DNA of 64,000 nucleotides. Source: Candidatus Omnitrophota bacterium. GTDB taxonomy: Bacteria; Omnitrophota; Gorgyraeia; Gygaellales; Profunditerraquicolaceae. The DNA lies in the NCBI GenBank assembly GCA_026387315.1, contig JAPLLY010000008.1, positions 50,069 through 114,068 of the forward strand, given 5' to 3'. The notes under the pieces were generated by a model. That model was not told the origin of the DNA, did not search any database, and saw only the letters and a program-made list of their open reading frames with translations. Numbering within the stretch: the first letter of the stretch is position 1; every line of letters starts with the position of its first letter. Shown piece after piece: positions 3,556 to 63,349 of this stretch. Position numbers and translations under genes: made by a program.

Positions 3556-4302
3556 TCATCTACCAGCAACATTAAGTAATTTTGTTTTCTTTTTTAGAAT
3601 AAAGAAAGTTAAATATATGCCTAAACCAATAACAAAGAAGGCTATCCAAGAATTATGCACAATAAAACGTCCTTGAGTTAACAAGTTAGTTAAGATCTCT
3701 AAGAAGAAGAATGTTGCAACAATAGAAAAGAATGAGGAGAACTCTCTTCTAAGAACAGTTTTAAAAGAAAAAGCTAACTCGGGTTTCTTCCAGTTTTTAA
3801 AACGAGGAATTATAATTGGCGTATTTTTGGCCCATTTCATAAATTGATCTTTGAATTTATTTCTCAAAAACTCTTCTTCGGTGAAAATAATGCGTTCATA
3901 ATAAAGCCAAAATCCGAACCAAACTAGTAAAGCTAACCACCACACTTGAATAAATAATGTAACACCTAAAACAATGATAAAATTACTCAGATAGAGAGGA
4001 TTTCTCGTAATGGAGTACATACCAGTCGTATTAAGCGTATCCGCTACTTGTGACTGAGTATTTCTTCCTGATGTACCCCGAGGCGCATACCCTACGGTAA
4101 AACAGCGAACAATAAGACCAAAAAAAGATATTATAATCGCAAAGATTCCCCAGTAGTCACCTACTGAATCCCCAAATTTCTTTTCTAATATTCCCGACTG
4201 TCTTATTGCAATAATGAAAATCGGAATACCTAAAAGCGGTAAATAGCTTCTCCACCTAAAAAGCCAGCTGCCTTGTTTTTCAATATCTTCACGTAATGCC
4301 AT
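3556..4302 (-). CDS. Polytopic membrane protein, isoprenylcysteine carboxyl / phospholipid methyltransferase-like
   Basis: Multiple hydrophobic helices. TGMYSITRNPLYLSNF resembles the RNP(L/M)Y motif of the ICMT/PEMT family. Confidence 0.55.
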   Translation of the reverse strand: MALREDIEKQGSWLFRWRSYLPLLGIPIFIIAIRQSGILEKKFGDSVGDYWGIFAIIISFFGLIVRCFTVGYAPRGTSGRNTQSQVADTLNTTGMYSITRNPLYLSNFIIVLGVTLFIQVWWLALLVWFGFWLYYERIIFTEEEFLRNKFKDQFMKWAKNTPIIIPRFKNWKKPELAFSFKTVLRREFSSFFSIVATFFFLEILTNLLTQGRFIVHNSWIAFFVIGLGIYLTFFILKKKTKLLNVAGR

Positions 4303-25489: not shown

Positions 25490-25535
25490 ATAAGAAATTT
25501 TAACACACTTTCAGGCCTATCTCAAGATAAATCAA

Positions 25536-25638
25536 GGGGACGGTTCTATTGTTCTTTAGAATCTAGGGGACGGTTCTATTGTTTATATATAAAAAATAGA
25601 ACCGTCCCCTTGTTTTTCGGAGAAAGAGAACCGTCCCC
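25536..25638. repeat. GGGGACGGTTCT hairpin family: two forward and two reverse copies (nested or alternative hairpins)
   Basis: Forward copies at 25536-25547 and 25566-25577. Reverse copies at 25598-25609 and 25627-25638. Begins 5 nt after the helicase stop codon. Confidence 0.9.
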
Positions 25639-25643
25639 TAGAT

Positions 25644-27581
25644 TTACAGTTCATCCGTGTTGCTGGCGTTCCGTACATCTACAAACTCTTCCAACAAACC
25701 ACCCTGCTCTAGAAAACGAGATACCCGGGTAAACACTGGGCCGGAGCCATCCGCGAAACTTCTGAAAGAACGGTCAATCCGCGGTTTTAATAACAATAAA
25801 TTTACTTTAGCCCGGGTAGCGGCAACATAAAACAAACGGCGCTCTTCTTCGATCTGATCTTCTGTGGCTAAAGATAGATAAGAGGGCAAATGCCCCTCGG
25901 CAACATAAATTAAAAACACTGTATGCCATTCCAGCCCCTTAGCCGAATGTATCGTCGAGAGAGTAAGCGGGGCACTCTCTTTATCCAGCCTGTCCGGCTC
26001 AACCAGCATCCTTTCCGGAGGCTCCAGAGCCATATCCACTAAAAATTGCTCGGTTGTTTTATAGCGTTGGGCGATTCTTAATAGTGAATCCAGGTCATTT
26101 AAACGCTTGTTAAAATCATCATACTTAATTTTTAATAACGGCTGATAATAACTAAGAAATCTGGAGATAATCTCAAACGGCGTATCAGTTTGAAGATCTA
26201 TGTTTTTCAATAACTCAAACAGTTTCTTAAGTTCGTCGCTCTTCTGCCACAGCTGTTCTAACCTGGGCTGATCTAGAATTGACTCGATGATTTTAGCCGC
26301 GGTTTTAGGGCCAATTCTAGGAATTAATTCCAGAGCGCGCAGCCAACTAACCTGATCCAGCCGATTGTAGGCAATGCGTAAATAACTCACCAGGTCTTTG
26401 ATGTGCGCGGCCTCCACAAATTTTTGCCCGCCATATTTGGCGAAAGGAATATTCCGGCCGGCTAATTCGATCTCTAAATCATTAGAGTGCCACCCGGAAC
26501 GAAACAGCACGGCCATATCTTTTAAAGCGACGCCCTCTTCTCTTAATTCTAAAATTTTTTCCGCCACAAAAACGGATTGCGCGTTTTCATCTAAACAATC
26601 AATAAAAACCGGAACTTCTCCCCCCTGCTTTTTAGTATAGAGGTTCTTCTGGAATTTTTCTTTGGCTTGAGCGATGACCGCGTTGGTCAAATTCAGGATC
26701 GGCTGGGTGGAACGGTAATTCTCTTCTAGAGTAATAATCTTAGCGCCTTTAAATATCTGGGGAAAATCAATAATATTTCTAAAATTTGCCCCCCGGAAAG
26801 AATAAATACTCTGCGCGTCATCACCCACGACCATAATATTGGCATGATCCGCGGCCAACAGACAGGCAATCTGCGCCTGAAGTTTATTAGTATCCTGATA
26901 CTCATCGACCATAATATATTTGTATTTAGCGCCCAGGCTGGCGCGCACAACTTCATGCTTGGTAAGCAAGTTTTTTAAAAAAACTAGCAAATCATCATAA
27001 TCCAGGAGAGATTTTTGATGTTTATATTTATTATATTCGTCGCGAATTTTCTTAATCTCTTCGGCAAATTCAATAAACTGCGGATATTCATCAAACAACA
27101 CCCCGGAAATCTCTTCGGATTTATTCACACTTTTAGAGATAACCTCTAAAATAGCATGTTTACGCGGAAAGCATTTCTCGGATTTATAAAAATTCAACTG
27201 TGTACGTATTAAATTTACCACATTTTCGGCATCCGCCTGATCAAGAATAGTAAAATTACTGCTAATTTCTAAAAGCTTGGCGTATTTTCTTAAGATCATG
27301 TTGGCGAAAGAATGAAAGGTGCCGCCGGAAACATTCTTACAGCGCTCATCCAACAGGAGGCTAGCCCGGCGCAGCATCTCTTGGGCTGAACGGCGCGTAA
27401 AAGTAAGTAAAAGAATCTGCTCGGGCGCTATGCCTTGTTGGACCAGATAGGCAACCCGGTGCACTAAAACCCGCGTCTTGCCGCTTCCGGCTCCGGCAAT
27501 CACCAGGTGCGGGCCAGAGATAGACTCCACGGCTTTAAGCTGCGCGGGATTTAGTTGGCGGTGATAATTTATTTTTTCCAT
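25644..27581 (-). CDS. UvrD/PcrA/Rep-family ATP-dependent DNA helicase
   Basis: LNPAQLKAVE, Walker A AGAGSGKT, and the motifs VDEYQDT, GDDAQSIYSFRGA, TIHSAKGLEW. Confidence 0.85.
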   Translation of the reverse strand: MEKINYHRQLNPAQLKAVESISGPHLVIAGAGSGKTRVLVHRVAYLVQQGIAPEQILLLTFTRRSAQEMLRRASLLLDERCKNVSGGTFHSFANMILRKYAKLLEISSNFTILDQADAENVVNLIRTQLNFYKSEKCFPRKHAILEVISKSVNKSEEISGVLFDEYPQFIEFAEEIKKIRDEYNKYKHQKSLLDYDDLLVFLKNLLTKHEVVRASLGAKYKYIMVDEYQDTNKLQAQIACLLAADHANIMVVGDDAQSIYSFRGANFRNIIDFPQIFKGAKIITLEENYRSTQPILNLTNAVIAQAKEKFQKNLYTKKQGGEVPVFIDCLDENAQSVFVAEKILELREEGVALKDMAVLFRSGWHSNDLEIELAGRNIPFAKYGGQKFVEAAHIKDLVSYLRIAYNRLDQVSWLRALELIPRIGPKTAAKIIESILDQPRLEQLWQKSDELKKLFELLKNIDLQTDTPFEIISRFLSYYQPLLKIKYDDFNKRLNDLDSLLRIAQRYKTTEQFLVDMALEPPERMLVEPDRLDKESAPLTLSTIHSAKGLEWHTVFLIYVAEGHLPSYLSLATEDQIEEERRLFYVAATRAKVNLLLLKPRIDRSFRSFADGSGPVFTRVSRFLEQGGLLEEFVDVRNASNTDEL

Positions 27582-27602
27582 GAACTATTCTATTAAATAA
27601 AA

Positions 27603-27657
27603 GGGGACGGTTCTGTTTTTCAATAAAATCATACGACGGAAAAACAGAACCGTCCCC
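27603..27657. repeat. GGGGACGGTTCT family hairpin (18-bp perfect stem)
   Basis: GGGGACGGTTCTGTTTTT (27603-27620) / AAAAACAGAACCGTCCCC (27640-27657), followed by TAGATTTC. Confidence 0.9.
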
Positions 27658-27675
27658 TAGATTTCTAAGTTTATT

Positions 27676-32514: not shown

Positions 32515-32587
32515 GGGGACGGTTTTGTTTCTTTAGAATCTAGGGGACGGTTCTCTTTTTTATATTATAAAAAAGAGAACCGTCCCC
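32515..32587. repeat. GGGGACGG family: degenerate forward copy plus 19-bp hairpin, flanked by T-runs (bidirectional terminator-like)
   Basis: GGGGACGGTTTTG (32515-32527), then CTTTAGAATCTA, then GGGGACGGTTCTCTTTTTT / AAAAAAGAGAACCGTCCCC (32543-32587). Ends 1 nt before the pheT stop codon. Confidence 0.9.
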
Positions 32588-32588
32588 T

Positions 32589-34640
32589 TTATTTTCGTAA
32601 TTCTATGCCAAACCGCTCTTTTAATAAAGAACAAATATCATTACGCGCCGGAGCAATTTCCTCTTCGGTCAACGTGCGGCTATCCATCCGATAGATACAA
32701 GATATGGTTAAACCCTTAAACCCCGCCGGGATTTGCGGGCCCTGATAATAATCTACGATTTTGGCCTGGACTAATAACGGAGCGCCTTTTGCCTCTATCG
32801 CCCCCAATACCTCTTGCACCGAAATATCCTCATTAATCACCAAACTTATATCCCGAGTAATCGCCGGATATTTAGGAATAGCTAAAAACTTTTTTCCTAA
32901 ATTTATACTACTAAATAACTTTTCTAAATTAACCTGGGCCAAGACAACTTGCCGATTTTTAATATCAAAGGCCCCTAAGATTTGCGGGCTTAAATCCAGC
33001 ATAAAACCTGCCTGTTTCTGGTTAATCACAATATCTATTTTATTATCTTCTTGACGCCAGAAATCAAAGTTTTCAACTCCCAGCCGATTAAATAGGGTTT
33101 CTAAAATACCTTTTAAATGCAGCAGTATAATTTCGTCTCTGACTAAGCCTTGTTTAGTAAAGAAGGTATTAACCCCGCATAAAGCCAGGCCCAGCAAAGG
33201 CTCTTGCGCGACTGCATTTGCTTGGCCGGAAAAAATATTGGCGATCTCAAAAATACTTACTCTCTCCTGCTGCTGATCTAAGTTATAGGCCAGAGCGCGA
33301 ATAAGACTGGGAAAAAGCGCGGGACGCAGAACCTCCTGCTCTTTGCTTAAAGGATTCAAAATTTCAATTAACCCGGCATCAATATTAAGCCCGGATTTTT
33401 TAAGCAGGCCGCGATCCACCAAGCTATAGGTAATTACCTCAAATAAACCTAAACCAGATAAGATATTTTTTATCCCGCAGATGAAGCCTCTTTTATCCGA
33501 AACTTCTTGGCCGGGCTTTACCGCCGGAAGGGTTTGGGGAATTTTTCCATAACCATAAATACGCGCAACTTCCTCCACCAAATCTACCGGTAACTTTAAA
33601 TCCTGACGGAAACTAGGCGCCCCCACGGTTAAAATATTCTTAGTTTTAGTTTTTACCCGCAGGCCTAACCGGTTTAAAATTTGCTTAATCTTGAAAACAG
33701 GAATGGCTGTACCCAATACTTTATTTAAATAAGCAGCATCCAAATTAATCACCGGATGAATTACTTTAGATACGCCTAAGCTGCTGAACCCGGAAGGTTT
33801 GCCAGAAGCTAACTTTAAAATTAACTCTCCCGCTGCCCAAGAAGCGCTCCTGACCGCTTCCAAATCTACCCCTCTTTCAAAGCGATAGGCGGATTCGGAT
33901 TGCAATCCTAATTTTTGTTTGGCCCGCCGCACGAGCAGGGGATTAAATACCGCGCCTTCCAGTAAAATGTTGCGCGTCTTAACCGTAACTTCAGTTTCTT
34001 TACCCCCCATAATCCCGGCAATGGCTACTGCTTTATGCGTATCGGCAATCACTAAAATTTCCGGGCTCAATATCTTGGTTTGGCCATCAATAGTAATGAT
34101 CTTTTCATCCGCGTTAGCCCGGCGCACTCTAATTTCTTTTTGGCTCAATTTATCTAAATCAAAGGCGTGCAGCGGTTGGCCTAACTCAAATAAACAATAA
34201 TTAGTAATATCCACGATATTATTGACACTGCGGCAACCTAAAGACTCCAATCTCCTCTTGAGCCACTCCGGAGACGGGCCAACTTTTACATTTTCAATTA
34301 TTCGAGCGGTATAAAGAGGGCAATCTTTTTTGTCTTCAATGGTAATTAGGTTCTTGGTGCTAGGTTCTAGGTTCTTGGGTTTACCCCTAACATCGAACAC
34401 CTTACACCTAGCACCTAAATTTATTTTTTTTCCGGTTATTGCCGCTACTTCCCTGGCAATTCCCAAAACACTTAACCAATCGGGCCGATTTGAAGTTATC
34501 TCAATCTCTAAAACAAAATCCTCCCCTGTTTTTTCCAGAGCAACTACCTCCAGCCCGGCCATAGTCAGTTTTTCTGCCAAAGCTTGAGGCGGAATTTTAA
34601 TATTTACGAAATCTTTTAGCCAATTATAAGTAACTTTCAC
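32589..34640 (-). CDS. pheT: Phenylalanyl-tRNA synthetase beta subunit
   Basis: (V)KVTYNWLKDFV is a typical N-terminus. I prefer the GTG at 34640 (GGAGG 10 nt upstream) over the ATG at 34667, which lacks an RBS. The B3/4, B5 and FDX-ACB regions are present. Confidence 0.85.
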   Translation of the reverse strand: MKVTYNWLKDFVNIKIPPQALAEKLTMAGLEVVALEKTGEDFVLEIEITSNRPDWLSVLGIAREVAAITGKKINLGARCKVFDVRGKPKNLEPSTKNLITIEDKKDCPLYTARIIENVKVGPSPEWLKRRLESLGCRSVNNIVDITNYCLFELGQPLHAFDLDKLSQKEIRVRRANADEKIITIDGQTKILSPEILVIADTHKAVAIAGIMGGKETEVTVKTRNILLEGAVFNPLLVRRAKQKLGLQSESAYRFERGVDLEAVRSASWAAGELILKLASGKPSGFSSLGVSKVIHPVINLDAAYLNKVLGTAIPVFKIKQILNRLGLRVKTKTKNILTVGAPSFRQDLKLPVDLVEEVARIYGYGKIPQTLPAVKPGQEVSDKRGFICGIKNILSGLGLFEVITYSLVDRGLLKKSGLNIDAGLIEILNPLSKEQEVLRPALFPSLIRALAYNLDQQQERVSIFEIANIFSGQANAVAQEPLLGLALCGVNTFFTKQGLVRDEIILLHLKGILETLFNRLGVENFDFWRQEDNKIDIVINQKQAGFMLDLSPQILGAFDIKNRQVVLAQVNLEKLFSSINLGKKFLAIPKYPAITRDISLVINEDISVQEVLGAIEAKGAPLLVQAKIVDYYQGPQIPAGFKGLTISCIYRMDSRTLTEEEIAPARNDICSLLKERFGIELRK
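34348..34420. repeat. Heptamer-periodic palindrome inside pheT (AGGTTCT TGGTGCT AGGTTCT AGGTTCT ... GAACACC TTACACC TAGCACC)
   Basis: Read directly. Translated in frame as ...GARCKVFDVRGKPKNLEPSTKNL.... Confidence 0.8.
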
Positions 34641-34696
34641 CCCGTTACAACCTCCAATAAACCCCATTACAAAAGTTTGTAACGGGGTAAGTTATT

Positions 34697-38597: not shown

Positions 38598-38616
38598 CCC
38601 GTTACAAACCTCCGAT

Positions 38617-40121: not shown

Positions 40122-40216
40122 TTTCTCACTCCATTAAATAGTTAGCACTAAAAAACCTACTTTCCCACCTATCGTCATTCTGAGGAGCCCGCCGGAATCT
40201 CTTCTACGGAAATCCC

Positions 40217-40274
40217 GGGGACGGTTCTATTGTTTCTTCACGCTAATGACGGTAGAAAAAATAGAACCGTCCCC
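40217..40274. repeat. GGGGACGGTTCT family hairpin (15-bp stem)
   Basis: GGGGACGGTTCTATT (40217-40231) / AATAGAACCGTCCCC (40260-40274), followed by TTGATTC. Lies between infC and rpmI. Confidence 0.9.
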
Positions 40275-40309
40275 TTGATTCTAATTAGCGCAGGGTATCT
40301 TATTATATC

Positions 40310-40816: not shown

Positions 40817-40831
40817 AGCTTCCTCCCTCTT

Positions 40832-42619
40832 TTATTTATGTTCCTGAATCTGATTAATTAAAATCCCCATAAACTCCTCCAAAACAACCGCGCCCTGATC
40901 CCCGCTTCCTTTTTTACGAACACTCACTTGCTGCTGTTTAGCCTCCCGGCCACCTAAAATCAAACAATAAGGAATTTTATTGATTTCGGCATTGCGAATG
41001 CGTTTATCCAGGGTTTCATTACGCGAATCTATATCTACGCGTATATTGTTTTGCAATAGCTTTTCTTTTACTTCTTGCGCGTAAGCACCAACTGTATCTT
41101 TAACCCCGTTAGAGACAGGCTGCCGCGGGCAGCCGTCGGACACCTTCGGTGTCCTGTCTCTAACGGGGTGAATTGGAATCAACAAGACCTGCGTTGGAGC
41201 CAACCATAAAGGAAGCTCTCCCTTGTAATGCTCAATCAGGGCGCCGATAAAACGCTCCAGGCTGCCTAACAAAACCCGGTGCAGCATAATCGGCTGCTTT
41301 TCTTTACCCGTCTCATCAATATAAGCTAAATTAAACCTTTTGGGAAGAGCAAAATCACATTGAATGGTCGCGCACTGCCAACTTCTTTTGAGCGCGTCTT
41401 TTAATTTTATATCAATTTTCGGGCCGTAAAAAGCGCCTTCTTGCGCGCGCAGATCATACTTTAGCCCTTTTTCTTTCAATGCCGCTTCTAAAGCTGCCGT
41501 GGCGCTCTGCCAATCCTCATCCGAACCGATAGATTTTTCCGGACGCGTACTTAATTCGATGCCTAACGTATCAAATCCAAAAACTTTCATCGTTTCGAAA
41601 ACAAAATCAATAATTTCCTTAATCTCACCGGATAATTGTTCCGGTAAGCAAAAAATATGCGCGTCATCTTGAGTAAACCCGCGCACCCGCAATAACCCAT
41701 GTAAAACCCCGGCTTTTTCCCGGCGATAAACTGTACCCAGCTCGAAATACCGAATAGGTAAATCTTTATAACTCCTGGTTTTAGATTTATAAATCAAAAT
41801 ATGGCCCGGGCAATTCATGGGTTTTAAAACATACTCCTGTTCATCCACATTAAGGGTGAACATACTATCTTTGTAATAATCATAGTGGCCGCTGGTCTTC
41901 CATAAACCCGCCTGCATAATATGCGGAGTAATTACCATTTCGTAGCCGCGTTTTAGATGCTCCTTTTTTTCATAATCCTCAATGATGGCGCGTAAAAGCG
42001 CTCCCTTGGGGTGATAAAAGACTAACCCGGCACCCGCCTCTTCATGATAAATATCAAAGAACCCTAAACTGGTCCCCAGCTTCCTATGGTCGCGCAATTT
42101 TGCTTCATCTAAATTCTTTAAATGCTCATCCAATTCTTTTTTGCTCTCAAAACAAGTGCCGTAAATTCTCTGAAGCATCGGGTTTGTTTCTAGGCCATGC
42201 CAATACGCTCCGGCTACCGATAATAATTTAAAAGCCTTAATCTCGCCGGTTGATTTTATATGCGGCCCGCGGCATAAATCCAGGAAGCCTTCGCCGGTTT
42301 TATAAACGCTCACCTGCTCGTCGGCAATACCCTGCAAAAGATCTAGCTTATATGGTTCCTTGAGGCCTTGAAATAATTTAATCGCGCCGGCCTTGGAAAG
42401 CTCTTGGCGGATAAACGGTTTATCTTGGGCAATTATCTTTAACATTTCCGCCTCGATTTTCGCCAAATCTTCGCCGGTAAACGGCTCTTGTTTATCGAAG
42501 TCATAGTAGAAGCCGTCTTCAATAGCCGGCCCAATGGCTAATTTTACCTCCGGCCAAAGCCCCTTTACCGCTTGGGCCATAATGTGCGAACAGGAATGTC
42601 TTAAAATGTTTAGATCCAT
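40832..42619 (-). CDS. thrS: Threonyl-tRNA synthetase lacking the N-terminal TGS domain
   Basis: Starts MDLNILRHSCSHIMAQAV (editing-domain HxxxH). Class II core and anticodon-binding domain are present. The track's longer ORF runs into tRNA-Val. Confidence 0.9.
   Translation of the reverse strand: MDLNILRHSCSHIMAQAVKGLWPEVKLAIGPAIEDGFYYDFDKQEPFTGEDLAKIEAEMLKIIAQDKPFIRQELSKAGAIKLFQGLKEPYKLDLLQGIADEQVSVYKTGEGFLDLCRGPHIKSTGEIKAFKLLSVAGAYWHGLETNPMLQRIYGTCFESKKELDEHLKNLDEAKLRDHRKLGTSLGFFDIYHEEAGAGLVFYHPKGALLRAIIEDYEKKEHLKRGYEMVITPHIMQAGLWKTSGHYDYYKDSMFTLNVDEQEYVLKPMNCPGHILIYKSKTRSYKDLPIRYFELGTVYRREKAGVLHGLLRVRGFTQDDAHIFCLPEQLSGEIKEIIDFVFETMKVFGFDTLGIELSTRPEKSIGSDEDWQSATAALEAALKEKGLKYDLRAQEGAFYGPKIDIKLKDALKRSWQCATIQCDFALPKRFNLAYIDETGKEKQPIMLHRVLLGSLERFIGALIEHYKGELPLWLAPTQVLLIPIHPVRDRTPKVSDGCPRQPVSNGVKDTVGAYAQEVKEKLLQNNIRVDIDSRNETLDKRIRNAEINKIPYCLILGGREAKQQQVSVRKKGSGDQGAVVLEEFMGILINQIQEHK
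41104..41168. repeat. 65-nt GC-rich multi-hairpin palindrome inside thrS
   Basis: CCCCGTTAGAGACAGG (41104-41119) / CCTGTCTCTAACGGGG (41153-41168), enclosing CTGCC-gcg-GGCAG and GGACAC-cttcg-GTGTCC. Confidence 0.9.
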
Positions 42620-42624
42620 AATTA

Positions 42625-42701
42625 TGGTGGGCAGTACAGGACTCGAACCTGCGACCCTCACAATGTCAATGTGATGCTCTAACCAGCTGAGCTAACCGCC
42701 C
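42625..42701 (-). tRNA. tRNA-Val (anticodon GAC), CCA encoded
   Basis: Hand-folded: GGGCGGT acceptor, D arm GCTC/GAGC, anticodon arm TCACA-TTGACAT-TGTGA, T loop TTCGAGT. Confidence 0.85.
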
Positions 42702-42809
42702 GAAAATTGTGGTTTGATTCCACTCATGGCAAACCCTACATCTCCAAGAGATTTAACTACTTGTGAAAACGACTTTCCACAAAGTTAGACGAAGGTTCAT
42801 GTATTTCAC

Positions 42810-43454
42810 CTAAATTTGCTTCTGCTTCTTCTCTCGAATACTTTTCAACAGAAAAGGTGCGGCTTCTTCGTATGTTTTCCCTGATTTTATAGAATTACAA
42901 ACCAAACAACACGTTTTCAAATTATCCTTGTTGTGTTTCCCGCCTTTACTCTGCGGATTCAAATGATCAAGAGTAGCGTTTTTGTCTGTTACCTTATCGC
43001 CACAATAATGACAAAGCCATTTATCACGTTCAAAAATTATTTTTCTTCGCTCGGGATCGGTAAAATAATCTTCAAGAGGTTCTTTTTTTAGATCTCCGTT
43101 CTTCTCATTCTTTAATTTTAGGCTTTCTTCTACTTCTGATGGCAACTTCACCTTATAGATTTTACCATTACGATTAATTTCTATTATATCTACGTGTCCT
43201 TTCTTCGCCAAATCTCTAATACAATCACTAACCGTGCTTGGAGCTAACCCCTTAGATTTGGAAAGTTTTCCTTTAGCTGGTTTGCTAACCTCTTTAGCGA
43301 GGGTTCTGTCGCCAACCTGAACTTGGTTTTTCCCATTCTCTAAATAGGACCAACGTAAAAGGTAATTATAAATGGATTGTTCTGTTGGAGTCTGAAGTGG
43401 TGATAAATAATCAATAACATCTTTGACAATTTTTATGAGTTCTTTAGCATCCAT
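42810..43454 (-). CDS. wHTH plus HNH endonuclease domain protein
   Basis: C-terminal CHYCG...TLDHLNPQSKGG...NL..CCLVCNSIK (HNH). The N-terminal ...STVSDCIRDLAKKGHVDIIE... is winged-helix-like. Confidence 0.7.
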   Translation of the reverse strand: MDAKELIKIVKDVIDYLSPLQTPTEQSIYNYLLRWSYLENGKNQVQVGDRTLAKEVSKPAKGKLSKSKGLAPSTVSDCIRDLAKKGHVDIIEINRNGKIYKVKLPSEVEESLKLKNEKNGDLKKEPLEDYFTDPERRKIIFERDKWLCHYCGDKVTDKNATLDHLNPQSKGGKHNKDNLKTCCLVCNSIKSGKTYEEAAPFLLKSIREKKQKQI

Positions 43455-43458
43455 ATCT

Positions 43459-44292
43459 TTATTCCAATAGTTTTTTATTTTGCGGCAATTTTCGATAATT
43501 TTCCTTACTAATCACCTTCTTGCCGCTTTTGCGTTCCAATTCTTTTCTGGCATTACCAGCTACAGCGCCGCCTTCAAAGGCGGCCTGTTTATTCTCCACA
43601 AAACCTTGAGCATCCTTATTAATGGCGATCTCTTTCGTTGATGCCTCGCCAAGCATTGAAAAGATAAGCTCTAAATCGGTCATATGGTCTCTAAGATTCT
43701 CCCGCTTTAAACCTTTATGCTTTTTATAAGCGGACGGGGTCATTTCGAAAGTTGCCTTTGATATTTCAGCGGTTAATATTTCGTATTCTTTTTGCTCCTT
43801 TATACCACGCTTCTGCCACTGATCGGTTAACTCCTCGCGAATAGCGATTCCGCGCACCCGCTTCTCAATCCATTCATCACTATACCCTTTTGCCTTATAT
43901 AAAGCCCTTGTCCTCTTTGTGGCAAGTTCCGGATTCTCGATCTCCTGAATCCGCTCATAACCTACCCGGGCTAACCATCGTTTAAAAGGCTCGGCTTTAG
44001 GAGATGGTATAGACTGAATAATGCGAAAGATGCCTTCCGTATTAGCACTAATCATCTGCTGTTTACCACCCGCGGTTTCAATAGCAAGGGTATGTACAAT
44101 TTGTACCCACCCTTTAGCGAGTTCCTGATCTCGCTGTTTCATTCTTTGGATATACTGTTTTGGATCATTTGAATCGGTCAGAGCCAAAACCACATCCTCA
44201 ACCACAAACCACCACTCGTTTTTATGAATAGCCTTGCGAATTTCACGCTTCCTGAAAATCGCGATTTTAGTCGTGGTTATTTCTTTATTCAC
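43459..44292 (-). CDS. Bro-N domain protein (DinD/antirepressor-like)
   Basis: IRKAIHKNEWWFVVEDVVLALTDSNDPKQYI fits Bro-N. The C-terminal ...NLRDHMTDLELIFSMLGE... resembles DinD-like proteins. GTG start; lies 4 nt upstream of the HNH gene. Confidence 0.6.
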   Translation of the reverse strand: MNKEITTTKIAIFRKREIRKAIHKNEWWFVVEDVVLALTDSNDPKQYIQRMKQRDQELAKGWVQIVHTLAIETAGGKQQMISANTEGIFRIIQSIPSPKAEPFKRWLARVGYERIQEIENPELATKRTRALYKAKGYSDEWIEKRVRGIAIREELTDQWQKRGIKEQKEYEILTAEISKATFEMTPSAYKKHKGLKRENLRDHMTDLELIFSMLGEASTKEIAINKDAQGFVENKQAAFEGGAVAGNARKELERKSGKKVISKENYRKLPQNKKLLE

Positions 44293-44363
44293 ACTTCCTC
44301 ATTTCGGCTGGCTCATAACGACCCCAGCAACTTTACTGCCAGGGTTCGCTTGAGCGTCAATCA

Positions 44364-44395
44364 TGGGCAAGAAGGGAGTCGGACCCTTGCTACCC
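44364..44395 (-). ncRNA. tRNA-like minihelix or tRNA 3'-half remnant
   Basis: Minus strand: GGGTAGCAAGGG-TCCGACT-CCCTTCTTGCCC-A. This is a 12-bp helix (one mismatch, two G-U pairs) with a 7-nt T-loop-like loop and an unpaired A. Starts 9 nt after tRNA-Leu. Confidence 0.4.
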
Positions 44396-63262: not shown

Positions 63263-63280
63263 ATAAATATTCATAAAAAT

Positions 63281-63321
63281 CCAGGGGACGGCTCTCTTTT
63301 TTTAAGAGAACCGTCCCCTGG
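63281..63321 (+). terminator. GGGGACGG family hairpin after rsmI (18-bp stem, one mismatch)
   Basis: CCAGGGGACGGCTCTCTT-ttttt-AAGAGAACCGTCCCCTGG, followed by ATTC. Confidence 0.7.
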
Positions 63322-63349
63322 ATTCTAAGCTTAAAGCTTAAAACTTTCC

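Follow-up and report, generated by a model that had tools for sequence, protein, structure and literature searches.

A 65-nt palindromic element in frame in the threonyl-tRNA synthetase gene of an Omnitrophota bacterium belongs to a dispersed family sharing its ends with a GIY-YIG nuclease unit

Introduction

Rickettsia palindromic elements (RPEs) are repeats of about 100-150 bp, confined to Rickettsia, which occur in frame in unrelated and often essential genes and are translated as extra surface peptides compatible with the function of the host protein (Ogata et al. 2000 Science 290:347, summarised in PMC10969869). A similar arrangement is described here in a 64-kb stretch of DNA from an Omnitrophota bacterium (contig JAPLLY010000008.1; the whole analyzed stretch is called the window), where a 65-nt palindrome lies at positions 41104-41168 within thrS, the gene coding for threonyl-tRNA synthetase (ThrRS). 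The palindrome was pointed out in an earlier note on this DNA, in which it was likened to the RPEs.

Three other kinds of short mobile or dispersed repeats have to be considered. Classical MITEs (miniature transposable elements with inverted repeats), such as Correia/NEMIS of Neisseria, are reviewed in PMC10969869. Repetitive extragenic palindromes (REPs) and REPINs are short multi-copy palindromes, some of them in replication and repair genes, and are thought to be moved in trans by the hairpin-recognising RAYT protein of the Y1/HUH type (PMC3733652). Finally, the Ssn proteins are single-strand-specific nucleases of the small GIY-YIG type, with hairpin repeats, named NTS/SRM, flanking their genes (Chenal et al. 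2025, PMC11893778). Their authors remark on the layout NTS-ssnA-NTS, which resembles an insertion sequence; the NTS repeats are rarely found inside genes (2%) and a duplication is nowhere mentioned in the main text of that paper (PMC11893778).

The thrS palindrome has defined ends, is bordered by a short duplication and faces an empty site in a close relative. It belongs to a dispersed family which resides in frame in many genes and shares its ends with a unit encoding a GIY-YIG nuclease. We regard it as highly probable that the palindrome is a MITE which landed in frame after the split from the closest sampled relative, is translated as a tolerated loop and was probably mobilised in trans by a GIY-YIG protein.

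An in-frame insertion in ThrRS

The thrS gene is carried by the minus strand at 40832-42619 and codes for 595 amino acids from the Met codon at 42619, the open reading frame (ORF) extending up to 42661. Its product contains the Pfam domains tRNA_SAD, tRNA-synt_2b and HGTP_anticodon and matches the ThrRS structures 6vu9 (E = 3e-162) and, from E. coli, 1qf6 (E = 1.4e-154). The ORF 40832-42661 is uninterrupted across the palindrome (CCCCGTTAGAGACAGGCTGCCGCGGGCAGCCGTCGGACACCTTCGGTGTCCTGTCTCTAACGGGG, with ends CCCCGTTAGAG and CTCTAACGGGG), which is read on the minus strand as ...IHPVRDRTPKVSDGCPRQPVSNGVKD... The alignment with 1qf6 splits at the element: residues 497 and 520 of the query both correspond to E. 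coli residue 547, the meeting point of the strand ...VVIMNI and the helix TDSQSEYVNEL. The earlier note had stated that E. coli ThrRS passes straight from strand to helix at the start of the anticodon-binding domain, and the alignment breaks exactly there. Its prediction of extra residues at this position also holds, their number being corrected from about 22 to 23: the 65-nt palindrome and 4 nt make a net insertion of 69 nt, which adds 23 codons (residues 484-506 of 595, HPVRDRTPKVSDGCPRQPVSNGV) between strand 1 and helix 1 of the domain.

The 16-nt ends of the palindrome are perfectly complementary, and the RNA of the coding strand folds into an outer stem of 14-16 bp around two 7-bp hairpins, one of which has a UUCG-like loop on the plus strand. 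According to the fold and to the pairing of the helices in the family, the left arm of the outer stem (41104-41117) pairs with the right arm (41155-41168), these two arms being the terminal inverted repeats of the element; this helix is paired in 99.5% of the cells among 13 family members. The stem encloses inner hairpin 1 (41118-41134, GGCTGCC gcg GGCAGCC) and inner hairpin 2 (41138-41154, GGACACC ttc GGTGTCC), both of which show compensatory changes at 5-6 of their 7 pairs, and a mostly conserved unpaired linker, C-GTC (41134-41137), directly precedes the second. The minimum free energy of the RNA is -51.3 kcal/mol versus -22.7 +/- 3.2 for 200 dinucleotide shuffles, none of which equals it (z = -8.9), and the G+C content of the element is 68% compared with 41% for the window. 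These results are in agreement with the description, given in the earlier note, of a very stable GC-rich multi-hairpin palindrome in frame within thrS.

Palindromes and repeats can mislead assemblers, and the read depth over 41103-41164 is 4-5 times that of the flanks, both of which could point to an assembly or chimera artefact. The loose ends at the element run into other flanking sequences; from this and from the extra depth, similar copies of the element must be present elsewhere in the sampled communities. Against an artefact, Logan unitigs of four DNA runs, which come from two independent studies (2022 and 2025), cross the two junctions with 0 differences (record 3 of X1, covering 40823-41276, and record 28 of X6), and no contig joining the flanks without the element was found in the four runs. 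Independent assemblies of other species hold related inserts at the same codon. The probability of an artefact is considered as practically negligible.

In an AlphaFold2 model built with 46 orthologues, which is poor overall (mean predicted local distance difference test score, pLDDT, 58.6) and was used for the local structure around the insert, the inserted residues form a coil with pLDDT < 50 between the strand 478-482 (VLLIP) and the helix 509-523, the rest of the anticodon-binding domain having a pLDDT of 81-89. This placement would agree with a loop on the surface where the HGTP anticodon-binding domain begins. The gene stays open, and the element would be translated as 23 residues looping out on the surface between strand 1 and helix 1. 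Translation of the insert and activity of the enzyme carrying it are presumed; that ThrRS tolerates the insert is suggested by the intact ORF and by the repeated occupation of the junction, including by a different palindrome in another ThrRS (P0006, locus L009).

The first residue of the ThrRS of this clade (572 residues without insert; window position 42619) is equivalent to E. coli residue 68, and the clade's enzyme therefore has no N-terminal TGS domain.

Empty and occupied alleles

The 120 closest ThrRS orthologues, all from Omnitrophota, the phylum of the source organism, were compared. The earlier note would have been refuted by orthologues with a conserved loop of the same length, which is not what is seen: most of these proteins have 572 residues and go from LLIPI to KDTV contiguously, with no loop. 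The closest relative, P0003, has a ThrRS 92% identical over 561 columns (Shimodaira-Hasegawa-like approximate likelihood ratio support 100), and its gene is found in the syntenic contigs L001/L002, from which the element is missing. The empty site of this sister genome reads CCG ATC|AAA GAT (CCGATCAAAGAT, i.e. CCGA-TCAA-AGAT), and the window reads CCA ATT CA-CCCC...GGGG-TT AAA GAT at the same site. BLASTN alignment of L001 with the window breaks at 41172 and 41101, giving a net insertion of 69 nt at 41102-41171. The element is bordered on the plus strand by TTAA (41100-41103), which on the coding strand follows the element within the codons GTT AAA, and by TGAA (41169-41172; TTCA on the coding strand), which differs from the first copy by one mismatch and turns the usual Asn codon into His. 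The repeat origin proposed in the earlier note for the extra segment of this essential enzyme is borne out by the empty sister site, by this target-site duplication and by the dispersed family, often in frame within genes, that is described below.

Inserts of the type N/H-P-V-R ... S-N-G-V are present at the same codon junction in 9 of the 120 orthologues and the other 111 are without them; a tenth protein, P0006, has an unrelated insert at this junction. The occupied ThrRS represent at least 5-6 separate lineages, with differing duplications and element subtypes. The junction DNA was read for seven lineages. On the coding strand, the flanks are perfect duplications in L003 (TCAA/TCAA) and in L006, L007 and L008 (TAAA/TAAA in each), and they carry one mismatch in the window and in L004 (TTCA/TTAA in both) and in L005 (TTAA/TGAA). 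The duplicated tetranucleotide corresponds to the last two bases of the Ile codon and the first two of the Lys codon; for this reason the third base of Ile ATN matches the third base of Val GTN in 6 of the 7 loci, which argues against one ancient event followed by drift. Three kinds of elements occupy the site, with lengths of 65 nt (the type that has two inner hairpins), 62 nt and 53 nt.

One ancient insertion in an Omnitrophota ancestor, inherited vertically and followed by many precise losses between the 4-bp repeats, could also account for a shared position. Replication slippage is known to delete precisely palindromes flanked by short direct repeats, the codon junction is the same in all occupied alleles, and the four 65-nt copies in thrS share their orientation. 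However, in a ThrRS tree for which the columns of the insert had been removed, the occupied rows are found in separate places, each lineage having a strongly supported empty sister, and seven state changes are needed when the different insert of P0006 is counted as its own state. Constraining the nine insert-bearing rows to one clade costs 494 log-likelihood units and monophyly is rejected (approximately unbiased test, p = 2.4e-5). Moreover, the duplications agree within a lineage and differ between lineages (TCAA, TAAA and TTAA types), which is not expected from drift, and the three interiors found at the site are unrelated. The flanking protein follows the species tree and not the insert, so that there is no sign of allele spread by recombination. 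A single ancient insertion appears very unlikely.

The data are better explained by a non-autonomous DNA transposon that would have entered thrS after the split from the closest sampled relative. Insertion would have occurred at a tetranucleotide T-N-A-A which spans the codons for Ile and Lys where the anticodon-binding domain begins, with duplication of these 4 bp, and the same permissive junction would have been struck independently in several Omnitrophota lineages. The reading frame is kept because the 65 nt and the 4-bp duplication add up to 69 nt, because the ends are free of stops in two frames and because the interior is free of stops in the frame used; such ends give x-PVR...SNG-x or x-PLE...LTG-x.

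Direct evidence of recent movement comes from the thrS gene of L006 (P0043; positions 541-605 and 1919-1983), which contains two identical 65-nt copies in opposite orientation, one at the junction site and one near the N-terminus, with perfect duplications, TAAA and TTTA, respectively. The junction copy is read as PVR...SNG and the copy near the N-terminus in the other open frame, TPLE...LTG. In a scan of metagenomes for the thrS-type right junction, 39 loci were recovered, of which one only was in a thrS gene, already in the set.

Several further insertions were observed in ThrRS genes of this group. In the thrS gene of P0079 (L005:2957-3057), the second hairpin of a 65-nt element has in it another palindrome, of 36 nt, whose ends are related (CCCGTTAGAAG...CTTCTAAACGGG), giving an insert of 35 residues with the frame kept. 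The insert of P0006 (L009, about 4180-4240) consists of 19 unrelated residues (NPRVNHNIAKDNCVNSAEA) with short inverted ends resembling CCTCGCG/CGCGGAGG, and its position suggests that elements of more than one family can be accommodated at the Ile|Lys junction. At codons 261-275 of the L003 gene, in the catalytic domain, there is a different insertion, a 45-nt double hairpin in frame that is translated as (G)KPAKNIGGSAENRG(G). It is found in six Omnitrophota ThrRS (L003, P0119, P0023, P0033, P0036 and P0058) and probably represents another frame-preserving palindromic family.

The element family in other genomes

The 16-mer end has no second match across the 64-kb window with up to 3 mismatches allowed, and the window thus holds one copy. 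When one genome per prokaryotic species was scanned with the pattern CCCCGTTAGAG-N(16-46)-CTCTAACGGGG, at least 120 stretches were found, about two being expected by chance according to our own estimate, and the metagenome contigs mentioned above add 39 further stretches. Among the matches listed, 28 are from Planctomycetota, 23 from Omnitrophota, 17 from Saccharimonadota and 3 from Nitrospirota; about 50 Patescibacteria lineages are represented, Saccharimonadota included, with single matches in Elusimicrobiota, Cloacimonadota and others and in two archaeal metagenome-assembled genomes (MAGs). The sub-families follow the phyla (50 nt in Patescibacteria, 38 nt in Phycisphaerae, 65 nt in Omnitrophota, Planctomycetota and Terrybacteria), which argues against contamination of the bins. 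In 2.9 million viral contigs a single copy was detected, and a phage vector was rejected on this basis. Full-text searches of the literature, directed at the end sequences and at MITEs from these phyla, yielded no description of the family.

The statistics of the family rest on 123 copies from the matches listed, whose 11-nt ends are fixed by the search pattern. The elements are 38-68 nt long, with longer variants up to about 134 nt, and have terminal inverted repeats of 11-16 bp. A perfect 4-bp duplication borders 77 of the 123 copies, and 19 others show a single mismatch. Reconstruction of the target gives Y-N-N-R, position 1 being T in 87% and position 4 A in 80%; a G before and a C after the target are each found in about 45-50%. 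In seven copies from unrelated hosts (L020, L024, L060, L061, L078, L109 and L116), the flanks are TTTA...TGAA or the complement TTCA...TAAA, and this non-identical pair, standing in place of a true duplication, occurs more often than random decay would allow.

In 93 of the 123 copies (76%) the length of the element is 2 mod 3, the other two classes comprising 15 each; with the 4-bp duplication, a length of 3n+2 adds whole codons. A TAG or TAA is present in just one frame of the ends; PVR...SNG or PLE...LTG is read in the remaining two, in either orientation. Forty-four copies (at least 36%) lie within ORFs open for 40 residues or more on both sides, and 43 of these have a length of 2 mod 3. 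Stops are depleted in the two open frames, 265 of 352 reading modes being open versus 226 +/- 8 in 500 shuffles (maximum 254). The hosts confirmed by Pfam, which are often essential, include DnaE (DNA polymerase III alpha), LigA (NAD-dependent ligase), GltB (glutamate synthase), RecD, ComEC, TsaD, Sua5, YchF, TatD, a class II aminoacyl-tRNA synthetase, a Y-family polymerase, GcvT, a radical SAM enzyme, glycosyltransferases and O-antigen ligases. Copies in thrS, in another aminoacyl-tRNA synthetase gene and in gltB come together in one Omnitrophota MAG (L004, L048 and L060).

These data also bear on the fate of the segment in the RNA, from which it could be removed as a mini-intron, or in which it could be bypassed, to give the 572-residue form of the protein. 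The strong stem puts both junctions side by side, and three lake metatranscriptomes have no coverage of thrS. Yet removal would need neither a length of 3n nor a stop-free interior, while 43 of the 44 intragenic copies preserve the frame and stops are depleted, and RNA contigs of these metatranscriptomes retain a paralogous copy together with both its flanks, a result for which carry-over of DNA is possible. A search of Rfam gave only sub-threshold matches to microRNA-like hairpins. To our knowledge, no splicing system for such hairpins exists in bacteria. Removal from the RNA seems extremely improbable, and the preferred reading remains a translated insert.

If this reading is true, a frame-neutral mobile hairpin remodels essential enzymes of uncultivated bacteria, and selfish DNA within coding genes, hitherto a Rickettsia curiosity, would be widespread over deep-branching phyla. 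The insertions would form a natural insertion scan marking permissive loops, here the junction of the catalytic and anticodon-binding domains of ThrRS. Inserts of this kind inflate the variation of protein length and can mislead the annotation and alignment of marker genes in MAGs.

Secondary structure of the 65-nt elements

An alignment was made of thirteen copies of 65 nt, some located in thrS and the others at unrelated sites, three phyla being represented. The outer stem and both inner hairpins are kept while the sequences of the hairpins vary, with compensatory changes at 13 pairs; positions 12-14 of the stem covary. Of the cells, 93.4% are paired; shuffles give 83.4%, with 0 of 500 equalling the alignment, and sliding of the partner column lowers the share to 35-46%. 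Ten of the 13 copies have kept the unpaired linker GACG, which reads CGTC on the opposite strand.

A hairpin of such stability, covarying and repeatedly found at one junction, could have been recruited for a function in thrS, for instance as a ribosome pause at the boundary of the domains, an RNase III site, a stabiliser of the thrS-infC-rpmI-rplT transcript or, at the protein level, a peptide loop; such a role would account for its maintenance at this site. But the same covarying structure is found in unrelated genes and in intergenic DNA of other phyla, so the constraint is that of the element and not that of thrS. Most ThrRS orthologues, including the 92%-identical sister, are without the insert, and other sub-families, among them those that occupy the thrS site in L007 and L008, have unstructured interiors, which leaves the ends as the sole universal feature. 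In addition, templated (quasi-palindrome) mutation can yield perfect hairpins without selection. Recruitment of the hairpin by thrS is therefore judged quite unlikely, and the structure is attributed to the mobile element itself, in which the covariation could stem either from recognition of a single strand in its folded form or from templated mutation of the quasi-palindrome type.

A candidate parent unit

Locus L131 contains, at 1174-1452, a unit of 279 nt which is bounded by 13-bp ends (CCCCGTTAGAGAT/ATCTCTAACGGGG) and flanked by a perfect TAAA/TAAA duplication. Its single ORF encodes 86 residues forming a GIY-YIG nuclease (PF01541, E = 2.5e-16, 60 bits versus a cutoff of 22.6). The right repeat codes for the six C-terminal residues (FLSLTG), and the stop codon comes from the duplicated target. 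An 82%-identical gene with the same repeat at its end is present in L077, an Omnitrophota MAG which also has a 65-nt copy very similar to that of the window; the locus is cut and the right end alone is visible. L144 is a 134-nt deletion derivative in which the first 26 codons of the ORF are kept. A small single-domain GIY-YIG gene with the repeat on both sides was identified in L131, L170 and L178, the last two being one Planctomycetes and one Omnitrophota contig, and the metagenomes that contain the organism of the window also contain diverged GIY-YIG units.

At E <= 1e-10, 3116 homologues of the 86-residue protein were retrieved, whose annotations name Omnitrophota, Planctomycetota and others, and a C-terminal [S/P]LTG is found in 104 of the best 120. 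Its best solved relative is UPF0213 BH0048 (1zg2, E = 4e-4), and NCBIfam gives only a sub-threshold match to a group-I-intron endonuclease. No linked DDE transposase was detected in about 1 Mb of loci, nor were long inverted-repeat pairs around a large ORF, and no gene family recurs beside the copies, the largest cluster being present at 5 of 120 loci.

The family is probably mobilised in trans by the nuclease of the 279-nt units, whose 13-bp ends and type of 4-bp duplication it shares, so that the GIY-YIG protein would be the candidate for moving the element. A more far-reaching proposal is that the thrS palindrome is the gene-less form of an undescribed class of autonomous prokaryotic transposons of about 279 bp, with one 86-residue GIY-YIG nuclease whose C-terminus is encoded by the repeat, in a family evolved for life inside coding sequence: with its length of 3n+2, its 4-bp duplication, its stop-free ends and an interior poor in stops, an insertion would add a loop and leave the gene alive. 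This proposal is tentative, and we find it slightly easier to doubt than to accept. If true, it would explain how essential genes were colonised in Planctomycetota, Omnitrophota and Patescibacteria and why the linker between the ThrRS domains was hit repeatedly; the ends common to the 279-nt unit would make it a testable candidate for a new kind of very small transposon.

Several points weigh against the proposed history of the element. No GIY-YIG gene is present within the 64-kb window, and two of the four nuclease units inspected are without a clean duplication (TTTA/TAGA in L170, TAAG/TAGA in L178). We know of no GIY-YIG protein shown to act as a transposase. The duplication of the window element is itself imperfect (TTAA/TGAA), and the target Y-N-N-R is too loose to explain the repeated occupation of one codon junction; the thrS site is without the preferred flanking G and C, and selection for a permissive site has to be assumed there. 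The low overall quality of the AlphaFold2 model and the metatranscriptomes devoid of thrS count on the same side as regards the loop and its translation.

Relationship to known systems

The family shows terminal inverted repeats, a fixed 4-bp duplication, an empty site in a close relative and many dispersed copies, features by which MITEs are recognized, and it shares with the classical MITEs the lack of a transposase gene. However, classical MITEs are derived from DDE insertion sequences and are mostly intergenic, whereas the present elements are much shorter, have a length quantised as 3n+2 and have as only candidate parent the 279-nt unit with its GIY-YIG gene.

The likeness to RPEs, for which the pattern was described first (PMC10969869), lies in a palindromic repeat placed in frame in protein-coding genes, as seen in the open thrS gene and in the 44 listed copies within open ORFs. 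In contrast to RPEs, the thrS family is far shorter, the 65-nt element being less than half an RPE, is spread over many phyla, with an Omnitrophota host in the present case, and has a clear 4-bp duplication, terminal inverted repeats of 11-16 bp and ends common to a GIY-YIG unit. RPEs, compared here by their description, should be taken as an analogy for the thrS element and not as its family.

As in the REP/RAYT system, short palindromes occur in many copies, some of them intragenic, and a dedicated enzyme is a candidate for acting in trans. The CGTC that precedes inner hairpin 2 of the window element also recalls the CGTC-tagged REPs (Di Nocera et al. 2013, PMC3733652). Nevertheless REPs have a GTAG (or CGTC) tag at one end, are not bounded by inverted repeats of 11-16 bp, produce no target duplication and depend on a tyrosine (HUH) transposase. 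The thrS family has a 4-bp duplication, CCCCGTTAGAG ends and a GIY-YIG partner candidate, and membership of the REP/RAYT group is ruled out by the duplication, the ends and the type of partner. Integron attC sites were rejected as well: the element reads GTTAGAG...CTCTAAC, with a polarity opposite to RYYYAAC...GTTRRRY, and it is flanked by a duplication and lies inside ORFs, while attC sites mark the boundary of a gene cassette and have no duplication.

The Ssn/SRM system resembles the present one in having a tiny single-domain GIY-YIG gene between hairpin-forming repeats that are also scattered without the gene. The thrS family differs from it by its terminal inverted repeats and 4-bp duplication, by a nuclease ORF ending within the right repeat and by its frequency in genes, at least 36% of the listed copies being in frame within ORFs versus 2% of intragenic NTS. 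The SRM motif HGTCWY..YYVSBRH..WNVSBRG..RNCYNB (PMC11893778) was found in 0 of the 123 listed copies and was not found in the window element, in the 279-nt unit or in the 64-kb window. Since the SRM motif is not matched, NTS are rarely intragenic and no duplication is reported for them, the thrS family is regarded as a relative in kind and not as a member of Ssn/SRM. If the proposal made above is true, it would be a candidate transposon related to, yet distinct from, this recently described system.

Additional repeats and neighbouring features

Directly upstream of thrS, about 1.76 kb of the window (42620-44384) is missing from the sister contig L001. This segment holds a 277-residue ORF and a 214-residue ORF with an HNH-like C-terminal motif, and a LAGLIDADG-like ORF is located upstream of thrS in many related contigs.

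The spacer between pheS and pheT contains a 48-nt hairpin (34640-34687, CCCCGTTACAA...TTGTAACGGGG) with two alternative pairings, which encloses the ribosome-binding site GGAGG and lies directly against GTG, the start codon of pheT. This hairpin and the one at 38599 overlap the ribosome-binding sites and the starts of pheT and trkA. The earlier note had linked the hairpins (given there as 34641-34690 and 38599-38610) to the thrS palindrome by a common core, CCCCGTTA. This link is not supported: the 8-mer is not enriched in the window, with 4 matches versus 2.0 expected and 16 of 100 shuffles reaching 4, the ends are CCCCGTTACAA, and no duplication is present. The two hairpins were rejected as members of the same family and are at best distant relatives of the thrS element.

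The pheS-pheT spacer of the sister genome contains a different palindromic repeat, of the GGGGACGGTTCT family. This other dispersed palindromic family, with the core GGGGACGGTTCT / AGAACCGTCCCC, is found in several intergenic spacers of both the window and the sister genome, its intergenic copies in the window being located at 25534-25648, 27588-27667, 32529-32597, 40202-40284 and 63270-63328.

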